Shown: positions 3,914-61,823 of the stretch, one piece after another
How the letters are laid out: every line of letters begins with the position of its first letter
Numbering within the stretch: position 1 is the first letter of the stretch
Assembly: GCA_964016885.1 (NCBI GenBank)
Contig: OZ024743.1
Coordinates: forward strand, 70,432,001-70,496,000
Length of the DNA: 64,000 bases
Origin: Eledone cirrhosa
Lineage: Eukaryota
Reading direction: 5' to 3'
Translations under genes and position numbers: made by a program
Notes under the pieces: model-generated
What the model saw: only the letters and a program-made list of their open reading frames with translations
Databases searched by the model: none
Told to the model about the DNA's origin: nothing

Positions 3914-4179
3914 CCAAAGATTAATAAGGTTCATTGATTACTCAATGAATATAGTTTTACAATAGAATTGTAACCATCAAGACCGTTGAGGTATGTCATA
4001 CACCAATTTATGAATTTTATCTGACGAGGGCGTACTGAAAAATTAGCACAGTACCTTCGAAATATATATAATAAAACATATATTTTGATTATGTGAATGT
4101 CTTCAGTTATTAATATTCTGAATAATATATATATATATATATATATTATTATTATGTAATAAACAACATAAGGCAATTA

Positions 4180-4239
4180 TTCCATTTACCAGTGGTTTCT
4201 TAAAAGCAAAAGGTTTTGCTTTCAATCCTCAGAATGAAA
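4180..4239 (-). ncRNA. type I hammerhead ribozyme, intact core
   Basis: Reverse complement of 8724-8783. Confidence 0.85.
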
Positions 4240-4448
4240 AATCCTGGTTTGTTTATTGAATATGGATTCTAAAAACAAAAATGCAATCTATATGAAAGTG
4301 AGGCTGGAAAAGGGAGAAGGAAACGAAAAATAAAATAAAATAAAACTACACATGCAAACACACACAAAAAAACACAAAAGCATACTTACACACACACACA
4401 TATATACACATATAATTTGCACGCATACACATATACACATACACACAC

Positions 4449-4513
<65 letters not shown>

Positions 4514-4572
4514 AGCGTACACCTACACACACATACACATATATACACACATATACACATACATATATTCAT

Positions 4573-4623
<51 letters not shown>

Positions 4624-4657
4624 TACACACACACATATATATACACATGTACATATC

Positions 4658-4705
<48 letters not shown>

Positions 4706-5321
4706 CATACATATACACACATATACACATATACATACACACCCACACACCCACACACACACACACACACACATGTGTGTGTACAAGCCTACACATACAC
4801 ACACACATATATATACACACACATATACATAGATTCACACAAACATACAACGTACATACATACACATACATGAATGCACTCCACTACATATTAACACACG
4901 CAAATAAATATAAGAAAAAAATATATAAATAATATTAACAAATATTTGACAGCGATACATGCCCCAGCTAACAGGACAGACACGCGTGGTAAGTAATACA
5001 CACATAAGCACATATACATACGTTCGAAATAGTAAACACACTCTCACACATAAATATACATATACAAATACATAAACACGTACATACACATACATACGCA
5101 AACACGTACACGCATACAATATAAACACACACATGTATATGTAATTATATACACACACACACACATATACATATATATATATATACATACAAAAATATAA
5201 AAATATAAACGCACACACACATATAAATACGTAAACACACATATACATACATAGCTAAACAATTATACACATGCAAATACGTATATATCAAAAGAACGCA
5301 CAACCAAATACAAACACACAC

Positions 5322-5352
<31 letters not shown>

Positions 5353-5636
5353 AACCCACACATACATAAAAATAAATAAAAACACACGCAACATATACAT
5401 ACATACACATACATATACATATATACATATATACATATACATATATATACACATATATATACACATAAATATATATATACATATACACACATACACGTAC
5501 ACATACACACATGCATACACATACACACACACATATACATGTGTGTATGTGTAAAGCTCAGTATTAGATAAGACAAATGAACCTTACATAAACGTATATA
5601 TAGTAGTAAAGTAATAAAGCCATACAAGGCAATTAA

Positions 5637-5694
5637 TCCATTCACCAGAGGTTTCTTAAAAGCAAAAAAAGTTTCCTTCAATCTTCAGAATGAA
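5637..5694 (-). ncRNA. type I hammerhead (cleavage triplet reads GTG)
   Basis: Minus strand TTCATT-CTGAAGA-TTGAAGG..CTTTTAA-GAAA-CCTCTGG-TG-AATGGA. Confidence 0.7.
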
Positions 5695-5996
5695 AAAAAG
5701 CCCTGGTTTATCCACATATACATACATATACACACACAAATATACAAATATATACACACATACAGACACGCACACACACACATATATATATATATATATA
5801 CACATATATATACATATATATACACAGACATATATACATACACATATATACACATACATATATATACATACATACATACACATATATATACATATACAAA
5901 CATATACGTACACATATACATATATACACACAAAAATACATACACATACACATAGGTATATGAAGGGCAAAACAAAAAGAATATATGGGGGGGGGG

Positions 5997-6690
5997 CTAA
6001 GAGGAGGTAAAAATATAAATCCTATACTTTTCTGTGGTACACAAAGAACAATTCTTTGTGCCCCTTTGGTACTCCCTCGAATGGTCTAATATAGACCAAT
6101 CAATAGAGTACGGGATATTACTATCCTTGAGATCCCATACCTTACTTGCGAGGGCCGTTGATGTTCGTTTATCTGAGTGTTTAAAAGAAGCGACATGTGA
6201 GTAAAATCTGGTTTTAAACCTGTCCTGGGTCATACCGACATATCGCTCGCTTCTGGCTGGCTGGTTGTTTATAACTGGCGTTATTTTAGCCTCATAAACG
6301 ACAGATTTTGTGTTACATTTACCCTGCAATGGGCATTCATCCGGCTTCCTGCAACTGCATCCTGGATTTATCCTCGTACGGTTTGAACTGGTGATTTTGG
6401 ATTTCATGGATGGACAACAAGAGTAGCTGATCTTAACTACATTCCTATTAAAAATCTTATAATATCTATGAATAGGAGGAAAATGTTTGTCTAATAGTTC
6501 AAGGAATTTCCTTCCTACATTTGTTTTGACATTTAGAGAGAAGGGGTGTGTGAACCAAATAATCTTCCTTTTCCTGTTATTATGGTTAGTTTTAGGGGGG
6601 GGGGAGTAGGTAAATAAGAAATATTTTTCTGTAAAACCGCTGTTCTTAAGGGCTTTATTATAATAAGGGGCGGCTTTATTAAAAATGTCT
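5997..6690 (-). mobile_element. Penelope-like element 3' fragment (linker + GIY-YIG endonuclease)
   Basis: RKRKIIWFTHPFSLNVKTNVGRKFL..SYSC, CSCRKPDECPLQGKC, VVYEA..YVGMT..FKTRFYSH, CSLCTTEK. Confidence 0.9.
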
Positions 6691-7180
6691 GGTGAATGGA
6701 TTAATTGCCTTGTATGGCTTTATTACTTTACTACTATATATACGTTTATGTAAGGTTCATTTGTCTTATCTAATACTGAGCTTTACACATACACACATGT
6801 ATATGTGTGTGTGTATGTGTATGCATGTGTGTATGTGTACGTGTATGTGTGTATATGTATATATATATTTATGTATATATATGTGTATATATATGTGTAT
6901 ATATATGTATATGTATATATGTATATATGTATATGTATGTGTATGTATGTATATGTTGCGTGTGTTTTTATTTATTTTTATGTATGTGTGGGTTTGTGTG
7001 TGGGTGTGTGTGTGTGTATATATGTGTGTGTGTTTGTATTTGGTTGTGCGTTCTTTTGATATATACGTATTTGCATGTGTATAATTGTTTAGCTATGTAT
7101 GTATATGTGTGTTTACGTATTTATATGTGTGTGTGCGTTTATATTTTTATAGTTTTGAATGTATATATATATATATACAT

Positions 7181-7844
<664 letters not shown>

Positions 7845-8297
7845 GTGTGTGTGTGTGTATATAATTACATATACATGTGTGTGTTTATATTGTATGCGTG
7901 TACGTGTTTGCGTATGTATGTGTATGTACGTGTTTATGTATTTGTATATGTATATTTATGTGTGAGAGTGTGTGTATGTGTTTACTATTTCGAACGTATG
8001 TATATGTGCTTATGTGTGTATTACTTACCACGCGTGTCTGTCCTGTTAGCTGGGGCATGTATCGCTGTCAAATATTTGTTAATATTATTTATATATTTTT
8101 TTCTTATATTTATTTGCGTGTGTTAATATGTAGTGGAGTGCATTCATGTATGTGTATGTATGTACGTTGTATGTTTGTGTGAATGTATGTATATGTGTGT
8201 GTATATATATGTGTGTGTGTATGTGTAGGCTTGTACACACACATGTGTGTGTGTGTGTGTGTGTGTATGTATATGTGTATATGTGTGTATATGTATG

Positions 8298-8339
<42 letters not shown>

Positions 8340-8373
8340 GATATGTACATGTGTATATATATGTGTGTGTGTA

Positions 8374-8421
<48 letters not shown>

Positions 8422-8723
8422 AATATATGAATATATGTATGTGTATATGTGTGTATATATGTGTATGTGTGTGTAGGTGTACGCTCTTTATATATATATA
8501 TATATATATATAATGTGTGTGTATGTGTATATGTGTATGCGTGCAAATTATATGTGTATATATGTGTGTGTGTATAAGTATGCTTTTGTGTTTTTTTGTG
8601 TGTGTTTGCATGTGTAGTTTTATTTTATTTTATTTTTCCTTTCCTTCTCCCTTTTCCAGCCTCACTTTCATATAGATTGCATTTTTGTTTTTAGAATCCA
8701 TATTCAATAAACAAACCAGGATT

Positions 8724-8783
8724 TTTCATTCTGAGGATTGAAAGCAAAACCTTTTGCTTTTAAGAAACCACTGGTAAATGGAA
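8724..8783 (+). ncRNA. type I hammerhead ribozyme, intact core
   Basis: Stem I TTCATT/AATGGA; CTGAGGA 8731-8737; stem II TTGAAAGCAAAA/TTTTGCTTTTAA; GAAA 8764-8767; stem III CC-ACT-GG; GTA triplet 8774-8776. Confidence 0.88.
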
Positions 8784-8885
8784 TAATTGCCTTATGTTGT
8801 TTATTACATAATAATAATAATTAAGCTCTGTTGCTTACATAGAGCACTCTTTTTTCCTGGACTTTTCCGATGGAATTACTTCATT

Positions 8886-11787: not shown

Positions 11788-12265
11788 TAATTTTCTTGTG
11801 TTGTTTATTACATAAATAAATAAAATATATATATATTGTGTGTATGTGTGTGTGTGTGTGGTGTCTGCTTGTATATACGTTGGCTGTCAATTTATGTCTT
11901 ATTCGACAGTAAAAGCGATCTATACTGTACTGGTGTCGATATATCATGTCAAGCAATGCCGTTGCATGGCCGCAGGCTAATGACTGAAAGCAGCAAAATA
12001 ATAAAGTAATAGTAATTTCAATTTTAGCAATAGAATATTTTTCAAAATTGTCTTCTTCAAAACAATTAGTTGAGTGCTATTATACAAATTATAAGTATTT
12101 CTGTAAATGTTTATGTAATCATTCTCTCTCTCTCTCAGTCACTTTGTCTCTCTTTCGTTCTCCCTCTCTCTCTCACTTATTTTTTTTATTTAAACACAAT
12201 ATATTGTTGTGATGAGAAAACAGGATAGTGATATTGAATATATATATATATATATGAAAAAGTGA

Positions 12266-12342
12266 GTCCTTCATCAGTGACCCTCCAACCGTCCTCGGCA
12301 TTTCATCGCTTTAAGGGCCATATGCCTCAGGTTGGTGCGAAC
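12266..12342 (-). ncRNA. non-circularly permuted hammerhead-like motif, family 1 (inverted copy)
   Basis: Reverse complement of 12510-12586 within inverted repeat 12251-12362 / 12490-12601. Confidence 0.75.
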
Positions 12343-12509
12343 AACGGCTAAAAAAAGTCGTTCGTCTCTTGTTCACGATTTCACAGAGTTTATATTCATA
12401 GAGATCTGGGACTTGTCTATTTCTACTCACTTTCCGTTGCTTAAACTTTTTTGTTGTTACTCTAGCGTCCCCCTTTGTTTACGTGTCCCAACGACTTTTT
12501 TTAGCCGTT

Positions 12510-12586
12510 GTTCGCACCAACCTGAGGCATATGGCCCTTAAAGCGATGAAATGCCGAGGACGGTTGGAGGGTCACTGATGAAGGAC
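12510..12586 (+). ncRNA. non-circularly permuted hammerhead-like motif, family 1
   Basis: GTTCG-ca-CCAACC-tga-GGCA-TA-TGGCCCT..GAAA-TGCC..GGTTGG-AGGGTCA-CTGATGA-AGGAC. Confidence 0.75.
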
Positions 12587-12641
12587 TCACTTTTTCATAT
12601 GTATCCCATTTGCAACGCCGCAGCTCCATTATTATCATATT

Positions 12642-12697
<56 letters not shown>

Positions 12698-42476: not shown

Positions 42477-42550
42477 GGCCGGTTAGCTCGGTTGGTTAGA
42501 GCGTCGTGCTAATAACGCGAATGTCGTGGGTTCGAGCCCTATACTGGCCA
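42477..42550 (+). tRNA. tRNA-Ile-AAT: tRNA-Ile (anticodon AAT), possibly a pseudogene
   Basis: Acceptor GGCCGGT/ACTGGCC, D stem GCTC/GAGC, anticodon loop CTAATAA, T loop TTCGAGC; G in place of A14 and no adjacent oligo-T terminator. Confidence 0.85.
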
Positions 42551-43647: not shown

Positions 43648-44965
43648 CAGGGGTCACCAAACTACGGCCCGCGGGCCGGATCAGACCCACGACGTCAGTT
43701 CATCAGGCCCGCCGACGGTACTTGCATTTGCGTGATAAAACGGATGGAACACGAGATGTTTCTAATTCAATGTCTTTTTTCATTTTCAGATCCCGTTCTC
43801 TTCATCCTTTATTATGGCTACTAAGAAAAGAAAAGTGGACGCCGGGTGTCGCGTTTTCAATGAAGAATGGGGAGTAAAGTACTTATTTGTGGAAACAAAG
43901 GACCAGAAAGCTAGTTGCGTGGTATGCAACGAAAGTGTTGCCGTTTTGAAAGAGTACAATCTTCGGCGTCACTATGAAACAAAACATCTATCAACATATT
44001 CAAAGTTTTCTGGAAAGTTACGCTCTGAGAAATATGAGTCCATGAAACGTGGTTTAGAAACTCAAAGAAATTTCTTCACGAGAAAGTTTGCTGAAAATGA
44101 ATCTGTCACTCGTACAAGTTACAAAATAGTGCATAAGTTGGCAGACCGAGGAAAACCGTTTACTGATGGCAACTTCATCAAAGAGTGTATGATGGAAGCA
44201 GCAAATGACTTGTGTCCTGAGAAAGCCGATTTGTTTGGAAGTATCAGCCTTTCGGCAATTTCAGTTGTGCGGAGAACAGAAGAACTTGGAGAGAACATAG
44301 TGCTACAGATACGCGAGAAAGCTAGGAACTTGTGGTATTCTCTGGTGCTGGATGAGTCTACTGATCTCTCGAGTACGTCACAACTTCTCGTGTTCATTCG
44401 TGGTGTCAATTTGGACTTTCAGATAACGGAAGAGTTGGCATCCGTTTGCTGCATGCATGGAACAATAACTGGAAAAAACATTTTCATGGAAGTGCAGAAA
44501 ACTTTGCAACCTTCAGTGGAATCAGCTTCGAGGTGTTATAGTTGATGGAGGAAAAAACATGGCTGGAGTGAGGAAGGGTCTGGTCGGGCAGATCAGGACT
44601 CAGTTGGAAGATTTGCAAATTCCGGGCGCTCTGTTCATACATTGCATCATACATCAGCAAGCACTCTGTGGGAAAGACTTGGATATTTCTTGTGTACTGA
44701 AACCAGTCGTTTCTGCTGTGAACTTCATTCGGGGACATGTACTCAATCACCGTCAGTTCCAGGCTTTTCTTGAAGAAATTGATTCTAATTTCTGTGACTT
44801 GCCTTATCACACAGCAGTGAGATGGCTCAGCTGCGGTAAAGACCTGTTTCGCTTTTACAAGCTCCGAAACGAAATAGATGTTTTTCTCACTGAAAAAGAT
44901 AGAGCTGATCCACAGCTGTCAGATCCTACCTTGCTGTCAAAGTTGTCATTTTTGGTCCATATTTT
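43648..44965 (+). mobile_element. hAT (Charlie/SPIN/GTF2IRD2-like) DNA transposon, left end plus frameshifted, 3'-truncated transposase (43814-44978)
   Basis: Left end CAGGGGTCACCAAACTACGGCCCGCGGGCC; KKRKVD..BED finger CVVC..LRRHYETKH, SLVLDESTD, DGGKNM, HCIIHQQAL, VRWLSCG; frameshift near 44510. Confidence 0.92.
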
Positions 44966-45034
44966 TCAACTTTTGTAGTAAGATGTGTATGTATAGATTC
45001 TATACATACACATCTTACTACAACAGTTGAAAAT

Positions 45035-55700: not shown

Positions 55701-56101
55701 ATTAGTGGTAGTATTAATTATAAAAGAAATAGCAGGCTATTAGCTATATTGCAAAGGAGCATTGCCATAGGTAGAAATAACCCCCCACCCCTCTCACATT
55801 TTGGCTTCCTATACATCTCCACTTTTGAGTCTTTGAAAGTGAAGCCCCTTGTTTATATGTTTGAAAATAGTTTCTTGATGAAGAAAAACTAAAGCGTAAC
55901 CTAATAGATGAAATATCTAAAATCACCACACCAGCAGAAAAACTAACATTTATAAGCCTTATACGCCCCGAAGAACAGTACATTACTCAAGAATGTAATA
56001 AGCACTTTAACAGAAAATTAAAGTGGCTTAAACGGGCAAAGCTAAATCGGGATACTATAGAGTATACCAATAGATATCCCGACAAAATTGACGGTATCAA
56101 C

Positions 56102-59100
56102 ATGGCCGACACCTCATTATCTGAAGAGTTCAACAATGAAAATACCAACATTTATGGAAACACGGAAATAGATAATAATGAAATGTCTGTGTTACGTCTG
56201 CCACCCAAATTTGCGACATTCAAGAAGGTAAATATGATTAGTTGTCTGTCAGAAATAGAAAAATCATTTACGAAACTACGCTGGAGCATCAAAAACAAAA
56301 ACAAAAGCAACAATATACGCACACACATATACAACACACATCCCAACAACAACAGACACACAGACACAAACAACAATAACAACAACAATAGCAACATACC
56401 CAGATACAACACCAACAATAGCAACATACCCAGATACAACAGACACGCAGACACAAACAACAATAACAACACACACGGAGACAACAATAACAACAACACA
56501 CACATCAACAACAACAACAACAGCAACATACCCAGATACAACAACAACAGACACGCAAACACAAACAACAATAACAACACACACAACAACGATAACACAC
56601 ACACACACGGAGACAACAACACACATCAACAACAACACACATCAACAACAACAACACACACACATTCAATGCCTCTCACCACCACTACAATCTTAACAAA
56701 CACACAGACACAGAAAACAAGTAATGACAGTAGCACAGAAATCAGAGAAATAAGAGAAAGTAATAGGATTAAAAGGAGAAGGGAGACTAAGGACAAAGAG
56801 AATAACCAAGACGAACACACAGACACACAAAATAGGGTAGATAACAACATTGAGCCAGTGGAAAGAGACAGGAGTAATTATGAGAGACATAGAAACAACC
56901 ATGAAGCTGAGGCTGCTGCTGTTGGTGGAAATAGAAACAACACAACTAACAATAGCACTAGTACACATAAAGCAGCAGCCTGGAACTCTCCGTTTTATAA
57001 CCCCTCCGATAAATCATTCGACCTACGACGAGTCCACGCCACGACTTTGCCATTTAACAAACGCACGCAGTTGCCGTCGCAGGTCGATGAACAAACAGAA
57101 GCACAATTTAGTATAGCTAAATCCGAACTTAGAAATATTATAGAACAGTATAGCAAGAAGCATAATAGAATAGAGGACCAGCAACTGGGAGAAGAATCTG
57201 CAAATGGCTTGCGTAAGCTCATGCAGCGCTCGCGTAATGGAGAGATAGCATGCTTTCCAACAGACAAGTCTGGCAGAATGTCGGTTGACAGCCTGCCAAA
57301 CTACATCCAGGCAATGCAACTCCACATCACTAACACAAGAGAGGTAACACCACAGGAGCATGAGGATAGAGAAAAAACCCTCAATGCCCATATGGTGATG
57401 TGGACAAATATAATTCAGCCCAACAAAAGGACTGCCAACAACTTCCAGGCCTGGAACAATGACGTTCCGGCGTTGTATGGGCTTCGAAAAGACCATAAAA
57501 CGGGCTGGGACCCTGTCGCGGGACCACCAACACGGCCAGTCTGTGGGGCTAACATTGCTAGTAACTACAGACTGTCCTACTTCCTCTCCCTGATCATACG
57601 CCCCATCATTGAGATGTCCCCAGATGTGTGTGACAGCACGGAGGACCTCCTCAGCAGAATCGGCGCGGGTAATCGATATGGGGACCTAACAAACTGCATA
57701 ATAGGCAGTATGGATGTTGTGTCCCTGTATCCATCTATTGACGTGGATTTTGCTGTGGAAAAATGCGTCGAAATGATCAGCGAGAGCAAGGTTGGGTTCC
57801 GTGGGATTGATACCAGTGAGCTGGGACTTCTACTTAAGCTTACCCATAGTAATAGTTACCTAGACACTTATGACCTTAGCAACCTGTGCCCTACAAGACC
57901 AGCAAGAGGCAGACCACCTACCATTACCTCAATGGCCAAGAAAACCCACACAGATAGATTGAACGGGTGGACCAGAGCCATACGGACACCCGAAAACCAC
58001 GATGAACTGAAGAAAATGATTGCACATGCGGTAGGGGCCAGCATAAAATTAACCCTTAAGGAACATATGTTCAAATTTAATGGTAAAACATATGCCCAAG
58101 AGGAAGGAGCAGCCATTGGTGTTAGCATTGCAGGCGACATAGCTAACTTGTTCATGGTATGGTGGGACAGTAGACTTAAACAAAAACTTAATGAACAATT
58201 AGAAGACAGCTTAACCCTGATAATGTACTCCCGCTACGTAGATGATATAAACATCGTAGTTAAGACACCCCCACTAAAGAACAGTCAGGAACCAGAGAAA
58301 AACACAATGGAAAGCATCCAGCAAATAGCAAACTCCATCCACCAGAGCATTAGAGTTACTATAGACTACCCAAGTAGACACCCCAACCATCGATTACCTG
58401 TACTAGACACAGAGCTCTGGTTAGATACTATTAACAACCAAAAACAAATCCTCCATTCCCATTATGCCAAACCCATGACTTCCAAACATCTGATCCACCG
58501 AAACTCGGCCATTTCGGACCATACCAAAATCAACATACTGATTGCGGATTTGGTACGGGTGATGAGAAATGTGTCCCGCATGTGCAACCCCGAAGAACTA
58601 GAGAGACACATACAACACTTCATCCACCGTATGCAGTTCTCTGGCTACAATCAGAGAGATAGAATCAGAGTGTATAAAGGAGCCAGAACCAAATGGGAAA
58701 AAATGGTAAATAATGACATAAATGGGACCTGCCCCTTGTATAGGAGTAAATTTTGGAATAGAATAGAAAGAACTAAGAACAAGGCCAATAGAATAAACTC
58801 ATGGTATGATAGCAATAAATACCAGAGTGTAATGTTCATCAATACAACCCCTAGAGGCGAACTAGCCTACAAATTTAGAAGGGCCCTAAAGAAACATAAT
58901 CTCAATATTAAGATAGTAGAAAGACCTGGTACCTCCGTAAAAACACTTATTAGCAAGACATACCCGTTCCAAAGACCCTCATGTATAGATAAGAAATGTA
59001 TAACCTGTAAAATAAGCCCCCATATTAACTGTAAAACTAGAAATGTAGTATATAGCATAAGATGTACTGAAGGACAATGTAGAAACAAAAATATAGTGTA

Positions 59101-59365
59101 CATAGGTGAGACAGCTCGTAGTATAGGGGAACGAATAAATGAACACTGGCGAGACCTCCAAGATAGTAAAGAATCATCTGTGCTCTACCAACATGCTAAG
59201 ATAGAACACAGGGGTAAATTAGAGAGCATAGAAATAAAAATAGAATCCACACACAAGAAAGACGCAATGTTTAGGCAAATTACAGAGGCAGTAAGCATAA
59301 AAGAATTAAAACCAAAATTAAATAGAAAATATGAGTGGAACAGCAACATCACAACTTACAATTAA
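56102..59365 (+). CDS. Penelope-like retrotransposon ORF: Asn-rich insert, reverse transcriptase, Cys-rich linker, GIY-YIG endonuclease
   Basis: PTDKSG, LYGLRKDHK, PTRPV, SMDVVSLYPSI, QEEGAAIG, RYVDD, LPVLD, CIDKKCITC..C, NVVYSIRC..YIGETARSIGERINEH, ITEAVSI..PKLN; frame is open upstream to 55871. Confidence 0.95.
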   Translation: MADTSLSEEFNNENTNIYGNTEIDNNEMSVLRLPPKFATFKKVNMISCLSEIEKSFTKLRWSIKNKNKSNNIRTHIYNTHPNNNRHTDTNNNNNNNSNIPRYNTNNSNIPRYNRHADTNNNNNTHGDNNNNNTHINNNNNSNIPRYNNNRHANTNNNNNTHNNDNTHTHGDNNTHQQQHTSTTTTHTHSMPLTTTTILTNTQTQKTSNDSSTEIREIRESNRIKRRRETKDKENNQDEHTDTQNRVDNNIEPVERDRSNYERHRNNHEAEAAAVGGNRNNTTNNSTSTHKAAAWNSPFYNPSDKSFDLRRVHATTLPFNKRTQLPSQVDEQTEAQFSIAKSELRNIIEQYSKKHNRIEDQQLGEESANGLRKLMQRSRNGEIACFPTDKSGRMSVDSLPNYIQAMQLHITNTREVTPQEHEDREKTLNAHMVMWTNIIQPNKRTANNFQAWNNDVPALYGLRKDHKTGWDPVAGPPTRPVCGANIASNYRLSYFLSLIIRPIIEMSPDVCDSTEDLLSRIGAGNRYGDLTNCIIGSMDVVSLYPSIDVDFAVEKCVEMISESKVGFRGIDTSELGLLLKLTHSNSYLDTYDLSNLCPTRPARGRPPTITSMAKKTHTDRLNGWTRAIRTPENHDELKKMIAHAVGASIKLTLKEHMFKFNGKTYAQEEGAAIGVSIAGDIANLFMVWWDSRLKQKLNEQLEDSLTLIMYSRYVDDINIVVKTPPLKNSQEPEKNTMESIQQIANSIHQSIRVTIDYPSRHPNHRLPVLDTELWLDTINNQKQILHSHYAKPMTSKHLIHRNSAISDHTKINILIADLVRVMRNVSRMCNPEELERHIQHFIHRMQFSGYNQRDRIRVYKGARTKWEKMVNNDINGTCPLYRSKFWNRIERTKNKANRINSWYDSNKYQSVMFINTTPRGELAYKFRRALKKHNLNIKIVERPGTSVKTLISKTYPFQRPSCIDKKCITCKISPHINCKTRNVVYSIRCTEGQCRNKNIVYIGETARSIGERINEHWRDLQDSKESSVLYQHAKIEHRGKLESIEIKIESTHKKDAMFRQITEAVSIKELKPKLNRKYEWNSNITTYN

Positions 59366-59560
59366 GGACAAAATGAAAACACACACACACATAGAACAAA
59401 CAACTTACAATTGAAAACACACACAAAATGAAAACACACACAAGACAAAATGAAAACACACACACACATAGAACAAACAACCAACCAACAATAAATAAAT
59501 AAATAAACAAACAAATATAAATAGAAAAATAGAAAAATGAACACAAACACACACAGACAC

Positions 59561-59616
59561 CCGGATGTGGCGCATGCGCAAACTGAGCACGCAACCCACA
59601 CACAAACAAAATGGCG
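59561..59616 (+). promoter_or_regulatory. candidate pLTR promoter motif cluster (ETS-, NRF1- and YY1-like sites)
   Basis: CCGGATGT 59561-59568, GCGCATGCGCA 59570-59580, AAAATGGCG 59608-59616. Confidence 0.45.
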
Positions 59617-59662
59617 TAGGATAGAAGAAAGGAAAGGCACAGAAACGAAGAAAGAAATCCCC

Positions 59663-59707
59663 AGTCACTGAAGAGGTCACAGAGTGTGTGACGAAAGAAC
59701 TATGACT
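59663..59707 (+). ncRNA. minimal type I hammerhead ribozyme in the PLE 3' pLTR
   Basis: AGTCA-CTGAAGA-G-GTCAC-agagtgt-GTGAC-GAAA-GAAC-TA-TGACT. Confidence 0.85.
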
Positions 59708-59862
59708 ATATATATATAAACAACTATCTGGTTGTGGAACCAACCAACCAACCAACCAGAAATTTATAAATTTGTAAATTTATAAATATATATTAAATTA
59801 AATTGAAGTGAAAGCAACTGGTGCGTGTGTTTCTTATTGGCAACATGACCCTCCCAAAGTAT

Positions 59863-59945
<83 letters not shown>

Positions 59946-59950
<5 letters not shown>

Positions 59951-60082
59951 TCAGATGAAATTCGATTATGTGATATTCCGTCGGCAGGAAAAAACACACG
60001 TCCTTTTGCTCATGCATAAGCCTGCTGGACGCATGAGCAAAAGGACGTGTGTTTTCACAAAATCGAATTTCATCTGAGGATA
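59946..60082. repeat. nested inverted repeat (fold-back)
   Basis: Outer TATCCTCAGATGAAATTCGATT arm, inner AAAACACACGTCCTTTTGCTCATGC arm. Confidence 0.85.
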
Positions 60083-60199
60083 CCGTTCTCATAACAACAA
60101 CAAATGCATGAATTACATCTTTATTGCATGGGAGAACCGTTGAAATAATTATAATGAATAAACGATTTATGCAACAACATCATCTTTATTAATGTTATC

Positions 60200-60534
60200 A
60201 GTATTAGTAGGGGGTCGAACGGCATGCTTTGTAGCATAGAGTTACGGCCCTTTGTGATCTGAGTTCAAATCCCGCCGAAGTTTACTTTGCATTTTATCCT
60301 TACGAGGTCAATAAAATAAAGTACCAGTCACGCACTGGGGTCCATTTAATCGACTTTCCTCCTCAAAATTTCTGACCTTGTGCCTATATAAGAAACCATT
60401 ATTATTACATATATATATTCTGAGTACAAATCCCGCCGAGGTTAGCTTTGCCTTTCATCCTTACGGGGTCGATAAAATAAAGTACCAGTAATACACTGGG
60501 TATTTGCTGGCCTTGTGCTTAACGTTGAAACAAT

Positions 60535-60594
<60 letters not shown>

Positions 60595-60905
60595 TACGAT
60601 CTGAGTTCAAATCCCGCCGAGGTTGACTTTGCCTTTCATCCTTACGGGGTCGATAAAATAAAGTACCAGTAATGCACTGGTTAATTGCTGGCCTTGTGCC
60701 TAAAGTAGAAACAATTATTATATATATATATAGGGTGGTGGATTGGCAGTATCGGTAGAGGGTCGGTCGCCATGCTTTATGGTCTGAGTTCGAATCCTAC
60801 GGAGGTTAAATTTGCCTTTCATCCTTACGGGGTCGCTAAAATAAAGTACCAGTTATACACTGGGATAATTGCTGGCCTTGTGCCAAAAGTAGAAACAATT
60901 ATTAT
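60200..60905 (+). mobile_element. four tandem SINE family A copies
   Basis: Consensus match. Confidence 0.85.
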
Positions 60906-60912
60906 ATATATA

Positions 60913-61620
60913 TCTGTTTGTTTACATGTCTCGCTCATTTCACACTATTCTACGTGTCCCAATAATTTTTTTAGTTATTGTTCGTACCAGCCAGAGGTAT
61001 ATGATCTTTAATGCGAAGAAATACCAAAGACGCTGGAAGATCACTGATGACGGACGTCTTCTCGCTCTAATTTTATTCATATGTATCCCATTTGCAACAA
61101 CGCATCACGCCATTTTCCATTTATATTTTTCCCTCCGCTGTGACCAGTCTGTTTCTTTCTTACTGTTATCCCCTTCTCTCCCCCCTGTATCTCTCACCTT
61201 CATTTCACCCCCTCTGCCAATCACTCTCTCTCAGCTGGCCTCTTCCTCACACTTTCACTCACTCTCTCTCTGCTACTCCCCCTCTCTCACTTCCTCCCGT
61301 CAGACCTGTGCGAAATCCTTTTCTCGCTTACATCTCACACGGCTCGGACGCGTCTGTGTCTCTCCTCGCCCATGATTCGTCGAACTTAAGTTCATAGATA
61401 TCACGGACTTGTTTCCCCTCTTCCTCTCTTTCTGTTGCATTACCGTCTCTGTTTGTTTACATGTCTCGCTCGCTTCACTCTATTCTACGTGTCCCAATAA
61501 CTGTTTTTAGTTATTGCTCGCACCAGCCAGAGGTATATGATCTTTAATGCAAAGAAATACCAACGACTGCTGGAAGATCACTGATGACGGACGTCTTCTC
61601 GCTATAATTGTATTCATATA
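60913..61620 (+). mobile_element. retrozyme-like element: two ~170-bp direct repeats, each with a permuted hammerhead (60980-61055, 61516-61592)
   Basis: CCAGC-caga-GGTA-TA-TGATCTT..GAAA-TACC..GCTGG-AAGATCA-CTGATGA-CGGAC; non-coding pyrimidine-rich interior; (TA)n flanks. Confidence 0.75.
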
Positions 61621-61758
61621 TATATCAGAATTAGCCGTCGAAACGGCCTGAGCTCAGCCGTCGGGGTCTTACTCGTTCCTATTACCCACTCTAATACTCT
61701 AAGTATTGAGTACTTTGGTGCGTTATGGTCCACCTGGTTCCTTACCACATTTCCTTCG

Positions 61759-61823
<65 letters not shown>

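Follow-up and report, generated by a model that had tools for sequence, protein, structure and literature searches.

A non-coding repeat family of Eledone cirrhosa with a predicted hammerhead ribozyme of SGC order and a four-way junction

We describe a large family of non-coding repeats in the genome of Eledone cirrhosa in which every unit contains a hammerhead core. The window (the whole 64,000-nucleotide stretch that was analysed, positions 70,432,001 to 70,496,000 of contig OZ024743.1) holds an aged, decaying copy of this family. We think it likely that this locus is a 1.3-unit copy of a tandem family whose type SGC core includes a four-way junction, and that the RNA of the family would cut itself, circularise and be re-inserted at (TA)n by the reverse transcriptase (RT) of a Penelope-like element (PLE) acting in trans. 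The hammerhead layout lies outside the published six-type list; here it occurs in very many copies, supported by covariation, and in the genome of an animal.

A 1.3-unit insertion with two predicted ribozyme repeats

The insertion (60913..61619, plus strand; sequence and repeat alignment) is a 5'-truncated copy of about 1.3 units of the subfamily that we call D. The original prediction had described a monomer delimited by hammerheads; the inserted sequence runs from 60913 to ~61619 and is not bounded by the cut sites. Alignment identified two direct repeats (60913..61086 and 61448..61623, both plus) that are 92.6% identical across 176 aligned columns, and each carries the rearranged motif, as had been proposed. 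From 5' to 3', each repeat contains GGTAT-A (a stem III strand and the cut site), then GAAA (at 61018 and 61554) and then CTGATGA (at 61044 and 61581). By analogy with the hammerhead core, cleavage is predicted at AUA after A61001 (61001..61002, plus) and after A61537 (61537..61538, plus). These sites had been named previously with a spacing of 536 nt, and we located them at that spacing in both repeats. The predicted 536-nt monomer (61002..61537, plus) is 46.6% G+C and 69% pyrimidine and has no conserved open reading frame (ORF). Its sole ATG frame of more than 100 codons starts at 61001, spans 124 aa and occurs in the window copy alone: 38 of the 50 units examined have an ATG at that frame, and 37 of these 38 stop after 9 or 15 codons. 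The interior is thus non-coding, as first suggested.

When compared with the commonest family letters among 22 relatives (175 columns), repeat 1 showed 8 private differences and repeat 2 showed 7, with none in common. Because these changes are not shared, the two repeats were probably identical when they were inserted, and decay came afterwards. The expected (TA)n flanks are present as short runs on both sides. The 5' flank (60901..60913, unstranded; sequence) lies at the tail of a SINE-like repeat, and the 3' terminus is an internal CATAT that merges with (TA)n. Comparison of insertion ends places this 3' end at 61613..61626 (plus), where TTCATAT merges into the target (TA)n and where reverse transcription was probably primed.

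The 3' part of the unit had also been reported to resemble a region near 12360-12490. That homology held up, and we refined its extent to 61391-61592 against 12395-12586, with 74-78% BLAST identity in the ribozyme part. The related sequence is a copy of the young subfamily A with a long 3' end (12395..12645, plus; alignment and genome matches). It is accompanied by an inverted partner with a short 3' end (12255..12360, minus; aligned part ~12266-12358; alignment), and together they form a PLE-type inverted pair with a tail on one side.

Several other features were observed in the window. Four tandem copies of a short SINE-like repeat lie directly upstream of the insertion (60258-60915); this family (D19), which we take to be of the octopus SINE type, occurs in eight other places. 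A near-perfect inverted repeat of ~140 nt at 59940-60090 lies by (TA)n and has CTGAGGA in each arm. A tRNA gene or tRNA-like sequence ending in CCA is found at 42477-42550 (Rfam 56 bits), and fragments of a transposase ORF at 43766-44978 are presumably hAT-like, judging by sequence motifs. A large inverted structure at 4144-8819, with arms up to 99% complementary, surrounds a Nematis-like PLE fragment (5997-6719, minus) and contains hammerhead motifs of type I, at 4232 on the minus strand and at 8731 on the plus strand.

Predicted structure of the ribozyme domain

In both window copies, the core blocks occur in the order site-GAAA-CUGAUGA, which corresponds to type SGC. The motif had been called a permuted hammerhead; the S-G-C order bears this out, and the split in its stem II makes it something other than a simple permutation. 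Helix assignment and alignment of copies place ribozyme domain 1 at 60956..61055 (plus), with core blocks GAAA at 61018-21 and CUGAUGA at 61044-50. Its helices are P1 (60956-59/61052-55), the P2 hairpin (60960-66/60974-80), P3 (60982-85/61013-16), P4 (60987-91/61032-36), stem III (60996-61000/61021-25) and stem I (61002-08/61037-43), with a predicted kink-turn (k-turn) formed by 60993-95 with 61026-31. Domain 2 (61491..61592, plus) has the same helices, with GAAA at 61554-57 and CUGAUGA at 61581-87; an uncompensated change at 61551 creates a mismatch in its P3 (61518-21/61549-52). All pairs of stem I (7/7) and stem III (5/5) are retained in both copies.

The strand 3' of CUGAUGA (GGAC) pairs with an upstream GUCC to form P1, and the strand 5' of GAAA (GCGA) pairs with an upstream UCGC to form P3. 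P2 is a 7-bp hairpin between these two upstream segments. Covariation supports the model that the resulting four-way junction stands in for stem II. P1 places a G-C pair one nucleotide past A9, as in a canonical PLE hammerhead at locus L150, and in Naiad elements and the older families Y and Z described below, P3 terminates in a G-C pair immediately 5' of GAAA. A9.G12 is stacked on by either P1 or P3, and in both cases a block presumed uninterruptible is broken. The motif falls outside the six types of Eckert et al. because the block that they assumed uninterruptible is interrupted.

Stem III leads through a 3 x 6 internal loop into P4 (about 5-6 bp). This loop fits a standard k-turn: three bulged nucleotides precede tandem G.A and A.G pairs. 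Stem I, P3 and P4 come together at their distal ends, with linkers of 0, 4 and 1 nt, an arrangement that requires the stem III arm to fold back; the k-turn would supply the bend. In our model, the k-turn would thereby close the cage, and the kink in the arm may need a k-turn-binding protein. No helix links the free side of stem I to that of stem II in the motif; the junction that stem I, P3 and P4 form distally may serve this purpose instead.

Nested MFE folding did not recover the full pseudoknotted model. An Rfam search of 59500-61800 returned no hammerhead family at E up to 10, and it also missed the canonical minimal hammerhead at 59661. In subfamily D, a downstream pairing (-4.9 kcal/mol) rivals stem I (-5.9) in both window copies. 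A downstream segment found in this subfamily alone (61057-61065 and 61594-61602) is able to pair either to stem I or to the GAAA region and is possibly an off-switch or a sign of decay.

We parsed 205 motifs and kept 176 after dropping 29 that were truncated or failed the filter; the loci are biased to subfamilies A and D. Family-wide presence of the CUGANGA and GAAA blocks is partly imposed by our search patterns. Position H17 was A in 155 of the 176 motifs and C in 21, and never G or U, a restriction that the genome patterns do not impose. The conserved block begins and ends at P1, and the letters just outside it vary freely. The k-turn bulge is always 3 nt long and has 12 different sequences, while the upstream non-bulged k-turn GA is kept in 173 motifs. 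Direct pairing of the strands flanking CUGANGA and GAAA was considered as a stem II and rejected, no such helix being available in any subfamily. Complementarity between the strands flanking the core is limited to one variable pair, possible in 145/176 motifs; at this position beside the core, the other 31/176 have C.A or A.A.

Covariation was scored in 23 chosen representatives. In these, 96.7% of cells pair in the model, and slid-alignment controls gave 26-51% pairing. Two-sided changes were present in 13 of 33 pairs, a level reached by 0 of 500 shuffles; these counts are not independent events, because the subfamilies are related and relatedness inflates them. By helix, the two-sided changes number 4 in P2, 1 in P3, 4 in P4, 1 of 5 pairs in stem III, 3 of 7 in stem I and 0 of 4 in P1. 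One subfamily shows compensation in P3 (3 copies, 2 loci). P1 is invariant in the main family (4/4 pairs), and its assignment rests on the exact boundaries of conservation, on family X and on our by-eye Naiad readings.

Searching the genome with a k-turn descriptor gave 129 matches, compared with 1 for the control. The search led to at least four older repeat families (X, X2, Y and Z; L290-L339) that have SGC order and a k-turn with different helix sequences. In family X, P3 is GUGC/GCAC, P1 has 5 bp and P2 is lacking, and individual copies have decayed; subfamily X2 has U at the k-turn 2n position. These older families lend independent support to the junction.

By analogy with established hammerheads, we predict with good confidence that the family's motif cleaves itself. 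For the two aged copies in the window, retained and lost cleavage seem to us evenly balanced. A different possibility is that the fold has been kept as a non-cutting RNP platform for a PLE protein or for a host k-turn-binding protein, the division of stem II having abolished catalysis. Such a division at the core removes a connection that the cited portion of PMC10085705 assumes to be essential, and the C.A or A.A pairs beside the core in 31/176 motifs point the same way. The behaviour of the catalytic positions argues for cutting. CUGANGA and GAAA are kept, in part because of how we searched, and H17 avoids G and U in 176/176 motifs while switching between A and C. By eye, Naiads of molluscs and crustaceans keep the catalytic positions as well, and the hammerheads of sister Naiads are clean examples of type CSG. 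We consider a non-cutting platform very unlikely.

Distribution and insertion of the family

A 34-nt pattern running from GAAA to CUGANGA had 9,898 matches in the genome, compared with 0 for a reversed control. A variant pattern, largely disjoint from the first, had 2,746 matches compared with 1. Together these strict patterns give ~12,600 matches, far above chance, and the counts are lower bounds; window copy 1, as we read it, fits neither pattern. The family divides into eight or more subfamilies. In a comparison of 12 units, interiors were 70-91% identical to that of the window unit, and most of the 50 units measured were 500-800 nt long. The 121-nt core of subfamily A (12480-12600) showed 100% identity in 40 of the 41 matches listed, and matches to the window's own subfamily D were 89-96% identical. 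The family was also found in contigs of three sequencing runs from one sample, the kind of which is not on record; these contigs are silent on expression. A loose pattern gave only chance matches in metagenomes (59 loci) and viruses (3 loci), with a complete CUGANGA in 0 of the 51 matches listed.

The first 100 matches listed on one contig (C1) represent 67 insertion sites. Tandem copies of 2-9 units were present at 13 of these sites (39 matches), and 6 sites had opposite-strand neighbours. The other 54 sites had no tandem neighbour, so that most sites are single, 5'-truncated copies. The arrays that we fetched consist of exact head-to-tail repeats with variable 5' starts and array-specific variants, and they contain up to nine or more units; units within an array differ in microsatellite length and at some SNPs. 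The family is therefore not confined to solo pseudo-LTR (pLTR) debris that is never tandem, and the arrays at 13/67 sites uphold the view of a retrozyme-like family built on a rearranged hammerhead.

We compared the ends of terminal copies. Among 146 such copies, 144 enter (TA)n 59-184 nt beyond the predicted cut site, mostly at CATAT and with modes near 60-80 and 100-120 nt past the cut. One locus ends at the cut site itself, with the same ATAT microhomology. Inverted pairs combine one short and one long end in 13 of 14 cases. The insertions share the (TA)n target, the internal 3' ends with an optional tail and the inverted, 5'-truncated partner of PLEs, and the tail of inverted pairs is a known PLE signature (PMC8557442, in the part cited here). 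These insertion signatures support the use of PLE machinery, as had been suggested.

The template reaches past the cut. It was therefore no linear cut monomer but either circular or an uncut multimer, and priming took place internally. The RT of an Anolis PLE likewise initiates inside its template, at a start site not homologous to the target (PMC11167929). In a model that keeps the same fold and self-cleavage and dispenses with the circle, RT would copy linear uncut or partly cut multimers, arrays would grow by template jumping or unequal exchange, and the ribozyme would only define RNA ends. Uncut linear RNA explains the 144/146 insertions that extend beyond the cut equally well. Insertions do not require circles, because uncut RNA was the main substrate of Anolis PAc and ribozyme mutants still inserted (PMC11167929). 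The weak fold of the window monomer as a circle (MFE -75.8 kcal/mol, compared with -72.2 +/- 5.2 for 30 shuffles; z = -0.7) and the microsatellite and SNP variation within arrays are also compatible with linear templates. Arrays in which up to nine or more near-identical units begin at arbitrary 5' positions are, however, what copying round a circle would give, and a hammerhead in each unit yields circles in the metazoan retrozymes described in the cited portion of PMC7229834. We judge the circle-free model rather unlikely and lean slightly towards a putative circular RNA from the family. The junction reads joining 61537 to 61002 that had been suggested as a check would be uninformative, because the joined sequence is an ordinary genomic ribozyme present in thousands of DNA copies.

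The preferred model, with self-cutting and circularising RNA, can be laid out as follows. Read-through transcripts of arrays would be cut at each AU(A/C), yielding 500-800-nt monomers that might then be ligated. A PLE endonuclease would nick (TA)n, and the nick would prime within the template, at CAUAU sites that lie 59-184 nt beyond the cut. A PLE RT acting in trans would copy round the circle or along an uncut multimer, which would generate 5'-truncated, inverted and tandem insertions. The ribozyme would come from a Naiad pLTR, and the young subfamilies would use a Neptune-like element.

Relationship to neighbouring Penelope-like elements

The window contains the ORF of a PLE at 55871..59365 (plus) with an RT and, at the C terminus, a GIY-YIG domain, 5'-truncated and 1,164 aa from stop to stop. 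The domain order and the Cys linker described in PMC8557442 suggest that it belongs to the Neptune clade. The protein closest to its RT comes from Octopus vulgaris (73%); Pfam recognised neither PLE protein of the window. The ORF ends 1,548 nt upstream of the insertion, in agreement with the ~1.5 kb given in the original prediction. The implied parental link found no support, since the PLE has a canonical hammerhead, no homology to the units and the SGC motif at 0/30 Neptune-like loci. The two elements lie close together because they share a target.

The canonical minimal type I hammerhead of the Neptune-like PLE lies at 59661..59712 (plus). The element (55871-59870) has two 3' ends about 58 nt apart, and the 31 Neptune-like ends that we compared comprise 17 short, 12 long and 2 other, all at ATAT into (TA)n, a signature shared with the non-coding family. 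The family is very active, with 129 of 150 scored matches 100% identical, ORFs of up to about 1,280-1,300 aa and a tandem spacing of about 4.28 kb. It has no non-microsatellite sequence in common with the units, and the Nematis- and Poseidon-like regions tested share no sequence with them either. The proposed search for autonomous PLEs with the motif in their pLTR found none among 30 Neptune-like loci or in the own 3' ends of 42 GIY-YIG loci. On sequence grounds, the Neptune-like element is a candidate helper and not the parent. Since the young subfamilies depend on an enzyme that is active, and our searches turned up no intact Naiad, the Neptune-like element would be the most plausible present helper, a role for which we see the balance as about level.

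We considered whether the copies could be solo pLTR debris of an autonomous or adjacent PLE, with tandems formed by local duplication only. Such debris would account for the predominance of single, 5'-truncated copies (54/67 sites lack a tandem neighbour), and Neptune-like fragments often lie within a few kb of motif loci. Yet any element-derived sequence that precedes the motif continues the same unit, and screening 169 motif loci with two PLE queries revealed no PLE ORF feeding into the motif. The adjacent PLE has a different ribozyme without homology, and the subfamilies are young and self-propagating. The debris reading is largely refuted, and we regard it as extremely unlikely.

Loci L150 (C1:34.43 Mb) and L151 (C1:35.46 Mb) are near-identical multi-element loci ~1 Mb apart that likely represent a segmental duplication. 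Their motifs lie 2.9 kb apart and were examined as possible pLTR-ORF-pLTR units, an interpretation that we rejected because they are separate insertions around an opposite-strand Poseidon-like fragment. At each locus, the Poseidon-like fragment has canonical hammerheads in which stem II corresponds to the motif's P1, and in the L150 copy (minus) the CUGAUGA-A-GGAC/GUCC helix is identical to P1.

A related layout in Naiad elements

Naiad PLEs have been reported without canonical hammerheads, eight of them being flagged 'HHR_half_core', and cephalopod Naiads have been described as long-inactive remnants (both in the cited portion of PMC8557442). We read ten Naiad 3' ends from the published consensus file (PMC8557442, File S5) by eye, without computation. 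Naiad_Ovul and the record that precedes it (Naiad_Obim by metadata order) have S-G-C order, a 6-bp stem I, a 5-bp stem III, a k-turn, a 5-bp P4, a 6-bp P3, a P2 hairpin and a 4-bp P1. Their P2 loop also occurs in subfamilies C, G and H of the present family. Naiad_EuTe, from a clam shrimp, has P1, P2, P3, P4 and stems I and III and lacks the k-turn. The helix sequences of these three records are wholly unlike those of the family described here, and the wiring is the same. Naiad_Esco has S-G-C order and stems I and III with a less clear junction. Read in this way, the layout is present in Naiad consensus sequences of octopus, squid and clam shrimp. The 3' ends of Naiad_Omin and Naiad_Adux (both incomplete), Naiad-1_Skow and Naiad_Ppla showed no motif by eye. 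Naiad_Hpol and its preceding record, from nematodes, have clean type CSG hammerheads with an extra closing helix; type CSG was previously known from only two metagenomic sequences. By these readings, 6 of the 10 ends contain a non-circularly permuted hammerhead. The tail of the record before Naiad_EuTe was too unclear to classify and is not among the ten.

Old copies resembling the Naiad version are present in the genome (L320, L390 and L392). A weak short-motif scan, run without a Naiad protein query, found no Naiad ORF, marked by an N-terminal GIY-YIG and DKA, beside 20 and 17 Naiad-type loci, and none of the 28 genomic matches to a short Naiad motif has Naiad architecture. A GIY-YIG profile search returned C-terminal-endonuclease proteins and no Naiad in the 7 matches inspected of 150. 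With Pfam PF01541, 30 of 150 matches and 12 extended loci had a C-terminal endonuclease wherever an ORF was called. From the sequence comparisons, we infer that the ribozyme may derive from a Naiad pLTR. We are somewhat inclined to a broader model in which the core-opened SGC wiring, a seventh hammerhead layout whose k-turn is possibly protein-switched, is the missing ribozyme of Naiads from crustaceans to cephalopods, with CSG in nematodes. In octopods, it would have passed into a circular-RNA retrozyme family of 12,000 copies, which outlasted the parental Naiad through its use of another PLE clade.

Discussion

Non-circular hammerhead layouts were previously known almost only from environmental sequence, as far as the cited portions of the literature go. 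The reported lack of hammerheads in Naiads had served to argue that PLEs can do without them (PMC8557442, in part). Should the motif prove to cut, this argument would lose its basis in some Naiads at least, the hammerheads having been overlooked through descriptor bias. The type I models used in the cited sections of retrozyme surveys may have missed a whole class of animal circular-RNA elements. A natural k-turn within a ribozyme would also allow a direct test of host-protein control of self-cleavage. We found no description of the motif in literature on hammerhead permutations, retrozymes, Penelope and Naiad elements, k-turns and cephalopods, a survey that lay mostly outside subscription papers and outside the Eckert and Li supplements.

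We compared the motif to known type SGC hammerheads, which cleave in vitro (Eckert et al. 2023, PMC10085705). Both have the order site, GAAA, CUGAnGA, crossing stems I and III, a short linker between stem I and GAAA and an intact core. The six layouts were argued to form a complete list, with core blocks assumed uninterruptible; here, in contrast, the stem II strands pair with a third strand in a four-way junction and the block is interrupted. The motif also has a k-turn in its stem III arm, whereas the word 'kink' is absent from the cited text. The published SGC examples (HRIMA-1) are environmental, with none from genomes of known organisms in the portion cited, while the motif here resides in a mobile element of an animal genome.

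In a standard k-turn, tandem G.A and A.G pairs come after a bulge of 3 nt, and the included angle is 50 degrees (PMC5689011, in part). By sequence consensus, the predicted k-turn shares the bulge and tandem pairs between two helices, and it differs from the standard examples cited there in lying inside a natural ribozyme arm. The same core is present in the minimal type I hammerheads of Neptune-, Nematis- and Poseidon-like pLTRs in this genome, which differ from the motif in that their order is C-G-S, their stem II is closed and their stem III is very short.

The family resembles the Naiad clade (Craig et al. 2021, PMC8557442, as cited in part) in its (TA)n targeting, tails and inverted 5'-truncated copies, and by eye it has the split-stem-II SGC layout of the Naiad_Ovul, preceding-record and Naiad_EuTe 3' ends. 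Unlike a Naiad, for which the cited portion flags only 'HHR_core/half_core', the element has no ORF.

Finally, the family resembles metazoan non-LTR retrozymes as described in the cited parts of PMC7229834 and 10.64898/2026.07.22.740005. Both consist of non-coding tandem units with one hammerhead each and a G+C content <50%, and both occur in thousands of copies, as monomers to multimers, alongside PLEs. The ribozyme here is not type I, in contrast to those retrozymes, so the type I descriptors of the surveys would miss the family. Its units are 500-800 nt long, compared with a typical 150-450 nt, and Li et al. report 51-972 nt. Retrozyme circles are described there as highly self-paired, whereas the RNA predicted here, known from DNA, is pyrimidine-rich and weakly self-paired.
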